A stretch of DNA of 64,000 nt from an uncultured Gammaproteobacteria bacterium (GCA_964411255.1 CAYPKD010000004.1:13093-77092), one strand, 5' to 3'. Shown: positions 6,635 to 10,287, counted from the first letter of the stretch. Notes: generated by a model from the sequence alone, not told the origin. A program made the numbers and translations.

Positions 6635-7309
6635 ATGAAAGAAAAACCAAAACAATCACTTGAAAATCAATTGCAAATGGCCCGCCCCAAGCGTGCTGAA
6701 GTTAAGCGTGTCCCTTTGACTCCAGAAGAAAAGGAATTTTTAGGTGAGATTATGGATAAGGCTGTGGCAGCAGAAAAGGCAGGGAAGCTGCAAGAAGCAT
6801 TAGATTTATATACTGATTATAAAAATGAATTATTAAAAATTAAAGAAGAAAAAGAAAAATTTGATAAAATAAAAGAAGAACCAGGCATTAAAAGCCTGAT
6901 TGCTATGGGTTTAGATAGAAAATTTATTGAAGAAAACTTTGATCTGACAAAGCTACCTGAGATTAAATCAAAAGGTGACCTGTTATTTAGTGGCATGAAA
7001 ATTAAAGAATTTCCTAATATAACGGTTAATGGCAATTTGGATTTGGGAAGCTCAACAATTAATAAATGGGATAGCGGGGGATTAATGATTAATGGAGATT
7101 TTATTTTATCTGCCGTAGATACAAAGTCATTGCCAGATGGTATATTTGTTGTTGGAAATGTATATTTGCAGAATTCAACAATACAGGATTTGCCTGATGA
7201 ATTTCATGTTGACAGAGATATATATGTTAAAAATTGTAATGCTAAAGTAAAACAAAAAGCTCAAGTGTTAAAGGTAACTGGAAGAATTAAAGGAAGTGTA
7301 CATAATTAG
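6635..7309 (+). CDS. expanded paralog family member A1: conserved N-terminal QMARPKR/LTPEEK helical module plus variable C-terminal LPxxLxVxG repeat domain
   Basis: N-terminal 65 aa near-identical to 14 other ORFs in the window. C-terminal repeats (..LPDGIFVVGNVYLQNSTIQDLPDEFHVDRDIYV..) and a ..TGRIKGSV tail. Confidence 0.8.
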   Translation: MKEKPKQSLENQLQMARPKRAEVKRVPLTPEEKEFLGEIMDKAVAAEKAGKLQEALDLYTDYKNELLKIKEEKEKFDKIKEEPGIKSLIAMGLDRKFIEENFDLTKLPEIKSKGDLLFSGMKIKEFPNITVNGNLDLGSSTINKWDSGGLMINGDFILSAVDTKSLPDGIFVVGNVYLQNSTIQDLPDEFHVDRDIYVKNCNAKVKQKAQVLKVTGRIKGSVHN

Positions 7310-7337
7310 AAAATTCAAGCTGAAGATTTAAAAATTT

Positions 7338-8048
7338 ATGCATGAAAAAAGTTCAAAATCTTTCGAATCCCAACTCCAAATGGCCCGCCCCAAGCGTGCT
7401 GAGGTTAAGCGTGTGCCTTTAACTCCAGAAGAGAAAGAATTTTTAAGAAAAATTATGGATAAGGCAGTGGCTGCGGAAAAGGCTGGAGATTTGCAGCAAG
7501 CTTTGAATTTATATACGGATTATAAAAATGAATTATTAAAAATTAAAGAAGAAAAAGAAAAAAAAGAAAAAGAAGAAAAAGAAGAACGAGGGGGAATTAA
7601 ATGGACAAAGGAAAAATTAGAAAACTGGATTGCTAGCATTGGAATTGCTGAAGAAGATTTTGTGGAACAATATTTTGATTTATCCAAGTTGCCAAAATTA
7701 GAATCAAAAGGTTCTTTGGATTTCAGCAACCTTATGATTGATATGTTTCCTGCTGATATGAAAGTTAAAGGAACTCTTACGTTGAGTAAATCAGTATTTA
7801 GAAAGGGGTTTGGTTCCGGATTGATCGTTAAAGGAGATCTAATAATGAATCGTTCAGCTATTAGTCATTTACCTAATAATATAAAAATTGATGGTAAATT
7901 AATTTTACGAAATTCAACAGTACAAGATTTACCTGATGATATATACATTGGTTCAGATATTTGGGTTGGAAATTGTAAAGAAAAAGTAATTGAAAAAGCA
8001 GGAAGACTTAAAGCTGAAGGAAAAATTAAAGGTGATGTTAAATATTAA
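7338..8048 (+). CDS. paralog family member A2 (mosaic with A4)
   Basis: Same N-terminal module. Central ERGGIKWTKEKLENWIASIGIAEEDFVE and C-terminal LPDDIYIGSDIWVGNCKEKVIEKAGRLKAEGKIKGDVKY are identical to A4. Confidence 0.8.
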   Translation: MHEKSSKSFESQLQMARPKRAEVKRVPLTPEEKEFLRKIMDKAVAAEKAGDLQQALNLYTDYKNELLKIKEEKEKKEKEEKEERGGIKWTKEKLENWIASIGIAEEDFVEQYFDLSKLPKLESKGSLDFSNLMIDMFPADMKVKGTLTLSKSVFRKGFGSGLIVKGDLIMNRSAISHLPNNIKIDGKLILRNSTVQDLPDDIYIGSDIWVGNCKEKVIEKAGRLKAEGKIKGDVKY

Positions 8049-8056
8049 TATCAAGT

Positions 8057-8764
8057 ATGAAATCAGAAAAAGCTGCACAATCACTCGAATCCCAACTTCA
8101 AATGGCCCGCCCGCGGCGCCATGAGGTTAAGCGTGTGCCTTTAACACCTGAAGAAAAGGGATTTCTCGGCGATATTATGGATAAGGCAGTGGCTGCGGAA
8201 AAGGCTGGAAAACTAGCTGAGGCAATTGAATTTTATACAGATTATAAAAATGAATTATTAAAAATTAAAAATAGGATTGAGAAAGAAGAAAGAGGGGAAA
8301 TAGAATGGACAAAGGAAAATCTGGTGGAGTGGGCAAAAGATATAGGTAAGGATGAAAAATTTGTAGAAGATAATTTTGACTTAACTAAATTACCTAAACT
8401 TGAAACAAAGAGCGATTTGACCTTAGATTTTGCAGTTATAGATAAATTCCCTGCAGCAATGAAAGTTAATGGAACGCTTATTATGAACAATGCAACCATA
8501 AAAAAATGGATTGGAACCAATTTAAGTATTAGAAGAAATTTATTTTTGTTTGGAGCAAAAACTGATTATCTGCCAGATAATACTATGGTCTTTCAAGGCA
8601 ACCTCGATATAAGCCAAAGTTCAATTAAAGATTTGCCAGATGATATCTTTATTGGAGGTAGTATTTCAATTGAAGGCGCAAAGCATGAAAAAAAATTAGC
8701 CCAAAAAGCAAGAGAATTAAAAGCCAAAGAGCAAATTGAGGGAGAAATTATTACTAATATGTAG
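8057..8764 (+). CDS. paralog family member A3
   Basis: Same N-terminal module (MKSEKAAQSLESQLQMARPRRHEVKRVPLTPEEKGFLGDIMDKAVAAEKAG..). Divergent C-terminal repeat region. Tail ..AKEQIEGEIITNM. Confidence 0.8.
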   Translation: MKSEKAAQSLESQLQMARPRRHEVKRVPLTPEEKGFLGDIMDKAVAAEKAGKLAEAIEFYTDYKNELLKIKNRIEKEERGEIEWTKENLVEWAKDIGKDEKFVEDNFDLTKLPKLETKSDLTLDFAVIDKFPAAMKVNGTLIMNNATIKKWIGTNLSIRRNLFLFGAKTDYLPDNTMVFQGNLDISQSSIKDLPDDIFIGGSISIEGAKHEKKLAQKARELKAKEQIEGEIITNM

Positions 8765-8797
8765 TCTGTCGATGAGTTTATTTAACTAAAAATATTT

Positions 8798-9508
8798 ATG
8801 AAAAAAGAACAACAATCATTCGAATCCCAACTCCAGATGGCCAGACCAAAACGATCTGAGGTTAAGCGTGTCCCATTGACTCCAGAGGAAAAGGAATTTC
8901 TGGGTGAGATTATGGGCAAGGCTGTGGCTGCTGAGAAAGCTGGGGAATTGAAAGAGGCTTTGAATTTATATACGGATTATAAAAATGAATTATTTAAAAT
9001 TAAAGAAGAAAAAGAAAAAAAAGAAAAAGAAAAAGAAAAAGAAGAACGAGGGGGAATTAAATGGACAAAGGAAAAATTAGAAAACTGGATTGCTAGCATT
9101 GGAATTGCTGAAGAAGATTTTGTTGAAAATCATTTCAATTTATTTAAATTACCAAAATTAGAATCAAAAGGTTTTTTAAATTTCAGCAACCTAATGATTG
9201 CCACATTTCCAGCCAATATGGAAGTGAATGGAGATCTTATACTGCAAAATGCTGAGGTAAAAAAATGGATTGGCTCTGGATTGAGAATAACAGGAGGTTG
9301 CAAATGTGTCAGCGCAAAAATAAAAAATTTGCCAGAAAGAACTACGATTCATGGTGATCTGTCAATAATAAATTCAACTATTGAGGATTTACCTGATGAT
9401 ATATACATTGGTTCAGATATTTGGGTTGGAAATTGTAAAGAAAAAGTAATTGAAAAAGCAGGAAGACTTAAAGCTGAAGGAAAAATTAAAGGTGATGTTA
9501 AATATTAA
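8798..9508 (+). CDS. paralog family member A4 (mosaic with A2)
   Basis: Same N-terminal module. A middle block different from A2 is flanked by blocks identical to A2. Confidence 0.8.
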   Translation: MKKEQQSFESQLQMARPKRSEVKRVPLTPEEKEFLGEIMGKAVAAEKAGELKEALNLYTDYKNELFKIKEEKEKKEKEKEKEERGGIKWTKEKLENWIASIGIAEEDFVENHFNLFKLPKLESKGFLNFSNLMIATFPANMEVNGDLILQNAEVKKWIGSGLRITGGCKCVSAKIKNLPERTTIHGDLSIINSTIEDLPDDIYIGSDIWVGNCKEKVIEKAGRLKAEGKIKGDVKY

Positions 9509-9516
9509 TATCAAGT

Positions 9517-10287
9517 ATGAAATCAGAAAAAGCTGCACAATCACTCGAATTCCAGCTTAAAATGGCCCGCCCGCGGCGGGCAGAGGTTAAGCGTGTGCCT
9601 TTAACTCCAGAAGAGAAAGAATTTTTAGGAAAAATTATGGATAAAGCAGTGGCTGCGGAAAAGGCGGGGAAATTGCAGGAAGCATTCGATTTATATACTG
9701 ACTATAAAAATGAATTGTTGAAGATTAAAGAGATAAAAGAGAAAGAAGAGAGAGGAAAAATTCAATGGACAAAGGAAATGCTGGTAAAGTGGGCAGAAGA
9801 TATTGGTAAAGATGAAACACTTGTTGAAAAAATTTTTGATTTAACTAAGTTACCAAAATTAGAGACAAAAACATCTACAAATTTAGGTTTTTTAGAAATT
9901 AAATTTTCCATGGATGAGTGTCCAGCTAATATGACGGTTAATGGAAATCTTGATCTTACAAGAGCTGAGGTGGCAAGCTGGATCGGATCTGGCTTGATAG
10001 TTAAAGGTAATTGTGACTGTTCTAAGACTAAGATAAAAACATTACCAGAAAACATTAGGATTGAAGGTGACTTAATATTAAAGGATTCAAAAATCGAACA
10101 TCTACCTGAAAATATAATAATTATGGGTGATTTAAAATTATCAAATTCAAATATTAGGAATTTGCCTGATAATTTAATTGTTCATGGAAATGTTTATATG
10201 AGAATGTGCAGGGCAGATGCAGTTTTGAAAGCACAAGAGCTGAGAAAGCAGGGAAAAATTAAAGGTTCAGTTTATGCTCGTGCATGA
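9517..10287 (+). CDS. paralog family member A5 (clearest 20/21-aa LPENIxIxGDLxL repeats)
   Basis: N-terminal module. Three tandem repeats: KIKTLPENIRIEGDLILKDS, KIEHLPENIIIMGDLKLSNSN and IRNLPDNLIVHGNVYM. Tail ..RKQGKIKGSVYARA. Confidence 0.8.
   Translation: MKSEKAAQSLEFQLKMARPRRAEVKRVPLTPEEKEFLGKIMDKAVAAEKAGKLQEAFDLYTDYKNELLKIKEIKEKEERGKIQWTKEMLVKWAEDIGKDETLVEKIFDLTKLPKLETKTSTNLGFLEIKFSMDECPANMTVNGNLDLTRAEVASWIGSGLIVKGNCDCSKTKIKTLPENIRIEGDLILKDSKIEHLPENIIIMGDLKLSNSNIRNLPDNLIVHGNVYMRMCRADAVLKAQELRKQGKIKGSVYARA

Follow-up and report, generated by a model that had tools for sequence, protein, structure and literature searches.

Here, we describe a family of 15 intact genes in a 64,000-nucleotide stretch of DNA (GCA_964411255.1, CAYPKD010000004.1:13093-77092), which is attributed to an uncultured Gammaproteobacteria bacterium and is referred to in full as the window, with positions counted from its first letter. 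Each gene encodes a small protein in which a constant N-terminal module is followed by a C-terminal domain (head). In related organisms, genes with this module surround a trio encoding a MoxR-type AAA_5 ATPase, a protein with an HExxH segment and a vWA domain, and a protein of ~150 amino acids (aa); at trio loci without module genes, a homologous head is joined to the ATPase itself, and at one of these loci it is the target of a diversity-generating retroelement (DGR). The reading we favor, with a probability of roughly 0.55, is that the module serves to dock cytoplasmic recognition heads, encoded as a germline repertoire, onto the ATPase/vWA/150-aa machine. The ClpB protein of the window is closest (61-66%) to those of Uhrbacteria, Magasanikbacteria, and other Patescibacteria, which, on sequence similarity, places the host organism in the Patescibacteria (candidate phyla radiation, CPR).

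As the first-pass annotation of this DNA had described, five co-directional open reading frames (ORFs) on the + strand form one array (array A; measured gaps of 28, 8, 33, and 8 nt), and ten further members on the - strand fill 49564-53256 (array B) and 55338-59557 (array C). Together, the 15 genes sum to 11,232 nt, or 17.5% of the window:

A1, 6635..7309, + strand, 224 aa: N-module and LRR-type (leucine-rich repeat) solenoid head; identical to database protein P0008
A2, 7338..8048, + strand, 236 aa: N-module and LRR head; mosaic with A4
A3, 8057..8764, + strand, 235 aa: N-module and LRR head; identical to P0009
A4, 8798..9508, + strand, 236 aa: N-module and LRR head; an intact copy is also present on the independent contig L097
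A5, 9517..10287, + strand, 256 aa: N-module and LRR head with one additional repeat; the protein used for the AlphaFold2 (AF2) model
B1, 49564..50271, - strand, 235 aa: N-module and LRR head; identical to P0015
B2, 50275..50988, - strand, 237 aa: N-module and LRR head; identical to P0006 and present on contigs of several samples
B3, 50992..51645, - strand, 217 aa: N-module and shorter LRR head
B4, 51651..52352, - strand, 233 aa: N-module and LRR head
B5, 52549..53256, - strand, 235 aa counted from the family Met (the ORF reaches 53319): N-module and LRR head
C1, 55338..55997, - strand, 219 aa: N-module and short LRR head
C2, 55999..56667, - strand, 222 aa: N-module and short LRR head
C3, 56676..58157, - strand, 493 aa: N-module and ~10 units of a ~37-aa beta-rich repeat (KWFIVNEKGEK...)
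C4, 58184..58906, - strand, 240 aa: N-module and helical head
C5, 58922..59557, - strand, 211 aa counted from the family Met (ORF TTG at 59596): N-module and short LRR head
N-module core, example in A1, 6653..6844, + strand: 64 codons, QSLE...LLKIK; its equivalent opens every member

Because the gene order is identical on contigs of three independent samples, the arrays are not an assembly artefact, and the intact A4 on a separate contig likewise speaks against the misassembly that had been considered at first. Promoter and terminator scans gave counts at the level of shuffled controls. The cumulative GC skew peaks at ~37,000-38,500, where gene orientation turns from mostly + to mostly -, which places arrays B/C on the strand opposite to array A, in mirror orientation.

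All 15 proteins open with the module, a segment of ~72 aa with 34 invariant columns; across distant homologs, the invariant residues are Leu and Thr of 'LTPEE', Ala44, Glu48 and Gly51 of 'AEKAG', Ala56, and Tyr60. Its conservation at the nucleotide level had been taken as a sign of recent duplication or gene conversion, a view that substitution rates calculated domain by domain overturn. Over 64 codons, mean nucleotide identity is 79%, lower than the 84% at the amino acid level, and the median nonsynonymous divergence (dN) is 0.10 against a median synonymous divergence (dS) of 1.13, with 17 of 105 pairs saturated; for the heads, dN is 0.81 and dS 1.32. The resulting ratio (omega) is ~0.09 for the module and ~0.6 for the C-terminal domain, a constraint ~7-fold stronger on the module. 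Since synonymous sites are near saturation, gene conversion is rejected as the cause of module identity: the copies are old and are kept alike by strong purifying selection.

Recent conversion tracts do exist in array A, but they lie outside the N-module, in the A2/A4 linker and C-terminal cap. A2-A3 and A4-A5 constitute a 1460-bp two-gene segmental duplication, within which A2 and A4 are mosaic: the linker is nucleotide-identical and the C-terminal cap has a proportion of synonymous differences (pS) of 0.11, whereas the central LRR units show a nonsynonymous proportion (pN) of 0.31-0.45 and the N-module a pS of 0.4-0.8. Such a pattern would be expected if central repeat cassettes were exchanged or the flanks homogenised. 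The tracts are as follows:

7518-7652 (linker) and 7923-8048 (C-cap): A2 mosaic tracts relative to their A4 equivalents, bracketing a diverged central LRR segment
7887..8186, + strand: recently converted or duplicated tract that shares 89% identity with 9347-9646 and runs from the A2 C-cap through the A3 start; the deletions of the frameshifted alleles below end inside it

A 199,604-bp JGI contig from another assembly carries A2 and A4 in frameshifted form only (P0001 and P0003). The internal deletions of these alleles (window 7836-7950 and 9335-9410) stop at a homologous point, nt 7951 and 9411, where the near-identical A2/A4 tract begins; the alleles are either real population variants or the product of local mis-assembly.

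In the model of A5, the module is predicted to be helical, with a short helix, a basic extended linker carrying the invariant LTPEE, and a long alpha-hairpin. It matches no known domain, in agreement with the initial failure to assign it to a family: Pfam scores for the MIT domain stay below threshold, and fold searches return generic hits. Membership in the PPR/TPR families was rejected, as the PDB E-value of 1e-19 is a sum of a 17-aa motif over designer repeat proteins in which no single stretch is significant. The N-module is a new domain. A search of its profile against 1.84 billion representative proteins gave 52 matches at E<=1e-3, of which ~20 belong to the core family, and all traced matches come from Patescibacteria. 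A pattern scan of 185,579 GTDB representative genomes did not find the module, JGI metagenomes contain it on 20 contigs, all from one sample series, and IMG/VR holds no relative, on which a phage origin of the family was rejected. Counting P0002, P0007, P0030, P0043, P0049, and a 365-aa gene in addition to the window's 15, this genome would have at least 21 members, the additional ones lying on contigs that match its own contigs in length.

The heads are less diverse in the window than first thought. Far from diverging completely, as had been claimed, 13 of the 15 C-termini are homologous (mean identity 30%, range 18-73%) and have in common a ~20-aa repeat, LPxNxxVxGxLxLxxxxIxx, and a capping tail, KAxxLKxxGKIKG; only C3 (beta-repeat) and C4 (helical) carry other heads. 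A profile of the 15 members matches FlrP in the PDB (8z5u chain 0, E 5.6e-15) over two stretches at profile positions 113-205. The AF2 model of A5 (predicted local distance difference test score 85.9) has helices at residues 10-17, 21-25, 31-49, 53-80, and 86-106, followed by a beta-solenoid of regular short strands and a capping helix at 233-244. With this model as query, the top Foldseek match is again 8z5u (probability 0.99, E 5.5e-3), followed by the LRRs of IpaH and SspH (E 0.016-1), all at modest E-values. Profile and model together indicate that the 13 heads are short LRR-type beta-solenoids homologous to Vibrio FlrP, a small LRR beta-solenoid spacer that binds the rod of the Vibrio polar flagellum (bioRxiv 10.64898/2025.12.04.692373). 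The heads and FlrP (21.5 kDa; PDB 8z5u/8z5w/8z60) are alike in their homologous repeat of ~20-22 aa and as small non-enzymatic protein-binding solenoids; unlike the window proteins, FlrP is a single-copy structural spacer with a Sec signal peptide, which none of the 15 possesses, and without an N-module. Neither the window nor the related loci showed any flagellar genes. The C3 head gave no match in Pfam or in a PDB sequence search and recurs in P0058, P0064, and P0084; the C4 head, likewise without a match in a PDB sequence search, recurs in P0044, P0054, P0057, and the L094 array.

Beyond the window, the same module is combined with a wider range of heads. The non-core matches are diverged modules, always N-terminal and joined to other heads, and in relatives the module precedes longer LRRs, C3-like beta repeats, WD40-like repeats, helical LAGLDSxxAW repeats, a ~250-aa globular domain ending in LGxRxS, or a C-type-lectin-like head. 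It is joined to at least five unrelated binding-type domains, and arrays on related contigs mix head types.

The link between this family and a possible partner machine comes from genomic context in relatives. In three independent lineages, module genes surround a trio on one strand with short gaps; the trio consists of a short MoxR-type AAA_5 ATPase (~470-495 aa), a ~650-aa HExxH-vWA protein, and a ~150-aa protein. The three arrangements and the vWA genes within them are:

L106/L107: four module genes, the trio, then 13 module genes; vWA gene at L106 13092-15080
L108: module genes before, inside (between the ATPase and vWA genes), and after the trio; vWA gene at 17850-19796
L094+L095+L112 composite: four module genes, AAA_5 3 nt downstream, vWA, a 149-aa gene, and at least four module genes; vWA gene at L112 1496-3478

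The composite joins contigs from three samples, tiled by 100%-identical overlaps of 2,585 and 1,596 bp; one of its products, P0012, is a core-family LRR protein with 51% identity to A2. Between L106 and L108, the trio proteins share only 47, 51, and 42% identity, so the arrangement is old. The trio vWA family is specific to Patescibacteria; its vWA domain (CobT_C) occupies residues 457-629 of 662 with nothing C-terminal of it, and its N-terminal region contains a conserved HEG[AS]HR...NA[VI]EDPRVNN segment, not recognised by Pfam, that looks like a zinc-metallopeptidase motif. The 149-151-aa trio protein has no Pfam match and no detectable family. In L108, a Gp49-like/HTH (helix-turn-helix) toxin-antitoxin-type pair is duplicated within the module/trio region (7001-7658 and 12757-13414).

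Trio loci without module genes provide a complementary picture. In L113, from a Magasanikbacteria metagenome-assembled genome, and in L114, the ATPase is long (751 and 757 aa), and its extra ~260 C-terminal aa show homology to the part of module proteins that follows the module (L113 head against P0068, E 8e-28; L114 head against P0067, 43% identity, E 5e-67). Module genes are neighbours at 3 of 3 short-ATPase loci versus 0 of 2 long-ATPase loci. Clusters among the 80 ATPase orthologs include 54 short and 10 long ones; this head, ending in ...RGFRLSVVF, is present in 8 of the 10 long clusters, and the module is absent from all 80 proteins. Since the head is found either fused to the ATPase or behind a module, the module can be seen as a means of joining separate heads to the ATPase/vWA machine.

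The fused head of L114 is a true DGR target. A complete DGR (3370-9534), comprising bAvd and a reverse transcriptase that is divided over two ORFs, separates the AAA_5 gene with the fused head from the vWA gene; its variable region (VR, 5524-5635) is the last 38 codons of the ATPase-head fusion, and relative to the template region (TR, 5925-6036) it carries substitutions at 14 of the 25 template adenines and at only 4 of the 87 remaining positions (p 4e-8). Integrase and transposase genes flank this locus. The L114 locus is in keeping with the literature: according to Paul et al. 2017, as cited in PMC10907252, fusions of an AAA ATPase with a C-type lectin are the commonest DGR targets in CPR, and one CPR DGR target class (UVR4) carries a Midasin-type AAA motif (PMC5758913). 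These fusions resemble the present system in the ATPase family, in the head carried by distant module proteins (the two matches given above), in the neighbouring HExxH-vWA and 150-aa genes, and in an apparent purpose, that of varying a recognition surface attached to the ATPase. They differ in that ATPase and head form one polypeptide and a single lectin fold is mutated, whereas the head here is a separate protein with a putative docking module, the window proteins (211-493 aa) lack an ATPase domain, and variation takes the form of germline paralogs of different folds (LRR, beta-repeat, helical). Repeats in the window are all paralog-to-paralog, without a TR/VR-like pair, and no reverse transcriptase appeared among the ORFs scanned, although no dedicated search of every ORF for one was made. 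The head of P0067, a distant module protein, ends in an Asn/Asp/His-rich stretch, GGAADVNDNHRGNRWHNFWGARLAVVF, similar in appearance to a template-like DGR variable region before mutation; DGRs may therefore target some module-bearing heads as well.

Under the docking reading, the family would comprise small cytoplasmic proteins, restricted to Patescibacteria, that combine a constant module with an exchangeable protein-binding head, and the head would be attached to the ATPase either covalently or as a separate protein behind the module, which would act as a non-covalent handle to the ATPase/vWA/150-aa machine. In other CPR lineages, the ATPase has a single C-type-lectin-like head at its C-terminus, varied by a DGR; in the present lineage, the head would have been split off and given a docking module, the handle combined with many binding folds, and the resulting genes multiplied into the germline repertoire that fills much of the window. 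The heads would then choose the proteins that the machine senses or acts on. How strongly the heads have diversified, the DGR parallel, and the predicted cytoplasmic location suggest that this sensing or handling is intracellular and that the targets are probably variable foreign (phage) or host proteins; a role in defence is a conjecture, because PADLOC matches neither the module family nor the trio, and with it no known defence system. More tentatively, and at rather less than even odds, we suggest that ultra-small CPR bacteria possess two interchangeable strategies for varying the recognition end of one AAA+/vWA/metalloprotease-like machine: somatic-style DGR hypermutation of a fused lectin head, or, in the present lineage, at least 20 separate germline heads (LRR, beta-propeller-like, WD40, helical) attached through an undescribed docking domain.

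Should this be correct, the family would represent a bacterial counterpart of F-box or NLR-LRR receptor repertoires and would give a first functional handle on the commonest class of CPR DGR targets, tying the ATPase of that class to two conserved partners, the HExxH-vWA protein and the 150-aa protein, and making the variable head detachable and replaceable, through one conserved module, by a library of unrelated binding domains. It would also explain why a genome of ~1 Mb devotes such a share of a 64-kb stretch to one family. If docking holds, the module would be a new compact protein-protein adaptor, and the same receptor scaffold would be seen under both germline and mutational diversification. 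The comparison with F-box families (FBXL, FBXW, and FBXO of SCF ligases) is by analogy only: there, too, a short constant N-terminal helical module plugs into a common machine and is followed by LRR, WD40, or other binders, in large families with lineage-wise expansion, but there is no relation in sequence or fold (no Pfam F-box match at E<=1), and the partner here would be AAA+/vWA instead of Skp1-cullin.

Several observations weigh against the docking reading. The window itself has no AAA_5 gene, its arrays sit between housekeeping genes (PBP2/GreA, YhaM-like/AMMECR1, and QueA/peroxiredoxin), and the trio is not beside this genome's own 370-aa-type genes. The only vWA gene of the window (39673-41748, 691 aa), considered as a partner, encodes a different protein, linked to an ECF (extracytoplasmic function) sigma factor. 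A short ATPase (P0183, 91% identical to that of L095) and a vWA protein (P0182, 86% identical to that of L112) lie on a 226,237-bp contig, and nine core-family members are likewise on a contig of 226,237 bp, which supports the presence of the trio in this genome only indirectly; we infer that it is there. Strong homology to ATPase-fused heads is confined to the distant module proteins P0066-68. For the 370-aa type of the core clade, the similarity is moderate and limited to the last ~80 aa (hhalign 64%, E 6e-5), and a hidden Markov model search found no homology between that type and the fused heads, which are represented in 0 of the 15 window genes. Furthermore, the 54 short-ATPase clusters far outnumber the module proteins detected; either many of these ATPases use other handles, or a narrow profile missed module proteins. 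Finally, any one of the three trio proteins might be the docking partner, or none of the three.

A different role for the module, unlikely but compatible with much of the same evidence, is that of a self-associating homotypic adaptor, which, by the logic of Death-like domains and effector-associated domains (EADs), would build mixed multi-head complexes or mark the paralogs as clients or effectors that the MoxR-vWA machine remodels or releases, in place of targeting subunits. Many copies of a small helical non-enzymatic domain beside a MoxR-vWA pair fit the EAD description (PMC7159879), the long alpha-hairpin could form coiled-coil bundles, and the trio linkage accords with this idea as well as with docking. 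The rule that defines EADs, by which a core component carries a fused copy of the adaptor, does not hold here, as the 80 ATPase orthologs carry no copy of the module and hhalign comparisons of the module with the alignments of the ATPase, vWA, and 150-aa proteins gave probabilities below 1%; the Rosetta-stone fusions put a head on the ATPase, which favors a subunit over a client role, and the heads are binding repeats instead of enzymatic effectors.

Comparison with the MoxR-vWA ternary conflict systems with EADs, described by Kaur, Burroughs, Iyer, and Aravind in 2020 (PMC7159879) in statistics that left CPR out, leads to a similar conclusion. Features in common are a MoxR-type ATPase and vWA pair with a third conserved gene (found in relatives, not in the window), a DGR link in some versions, and a small non-enzymatic helical domain common to neighbouring and dispersed genes with varied C-termini. 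In those systems, the third gene encodes a VMAP or iSTAND protein; the 149-151 aa of the third protein here leave too little length for a tripartite VMAP. Further differences are that the vWA protein carries HExxH in its N-terminal region and lacks an effector at its C-terminus, no core component carries a copy of the module, the variable parts are binding repeats and not enzymatic effectors, and the host is a CPR bacterium. The family falls outside the EAD-coupled class but may operate along similar lines.

The layout of the proteins had initially been likened to that of polymorphic effectors and variable surface proteins. The constant N-terminal handle with a diversified C-terminal binder stands, as seen in the omega contrast and the number of head types, but the likeness to effectors and surface proteins is not supported, since signal peptides, toxin domains, room for immunity genes, and nearby secretion genes are all lacking. 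We consider it improbable that the family is exported by a non-classical route, with the module as a trafficking signal and the LRR heads binding host molecules of a presumed episymbiont. The constant-N, variable-C architecture would suit such proteins, among structural LRR matches the secreted effectors IpaH and SspH come next after FlrP, and CPR bacteria are host-dependent, with DGR-varied CPR proteins proposed to act in host interaction (in work cited by PMC10907252). Against this, the 15 proteins have no signal peptide or lipobox, as the first reading of the sequence had noted, and no transmembrane segment: the maximum Kyte-Doolittle hydropathy KD(9) within the first 33 aa is <=0.30 and the maximum KD(19) is <=1.56, so the proteins are predicted to be cytoplasmic. 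Pfam and PADLOC detect no toxin or trafficking domains in the family, the 8-33 nt gaps leave no room for immunity genes, secretion genes are not adjacent in the window or in 20 related loci, the conserved neighbours in relatives are cytoplasmic ATPase and vWA proteins, and the Foldseek matches to IpaH and SspH are weak.

A divergent MIT domain, contacting an ESCRT-III/PspA-type partner or an AAA ATPase tail in an MIT-MIM-like manner, is a very unlikely identity for the module. Pfam matches to MIT (PF04212) are consistent over residues ~38-75 (E 0.002-0.02; best 1.1e-5, 25.9 bits, in P0044), single stretches weakly match Vps4B/SKD1 MIT structures (E 0.08-0.9), the conserved C-terminal tail of the short ATPases, ...LLGxGLPxExK..., could be a MIM-like ligand, and both domains contain an alpha-hairpin with a KAG-x-L-x-EAL-x-LY-type motif. 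Membership was nevertheless rejected: window members score 15-19 bits, and not even P0044 reaches the gathering cut-off of 30 bits, while solved MIT domains are three-helix bundles, a fold that the module does not match. Least credible of all is a lineage-specific expansion coincidentally adjacent to the ATPase machine, with the module as the slow-evolving part of a fast family, for although the family genes of the window and of L115/L116 lie among housekeeping genes with the trio not nearby, the adjacency recurs in three lineages with trio proteins 42-51% identical, module genes are interleaved within the trio, and head-ATPase fusions are complementary to module presence.

Two further loci in the window deserve mention. 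At 38938-42449 on the - strand, genes for a pentapeptide-repeat protein, the ECF sigma factor, and the 691-aa vWA protein, which has no relation to the HExxH-vWA protein of the trio, lie together. An ORF of 476 codons at 22282-23712 (+), with a basic C-terminal tail and without a Pfam, NCBIfam, or Rfam match, coincides with a sharply bounded block of 50-58% GC at 22,400-23,700 in a genome of 32% GC. The predicted folding energy of this block is far below that of mononucleotide shuffles on the + strand only (z -9 versus +1.2), and the block may represent a foreign gene or a structured RNA.

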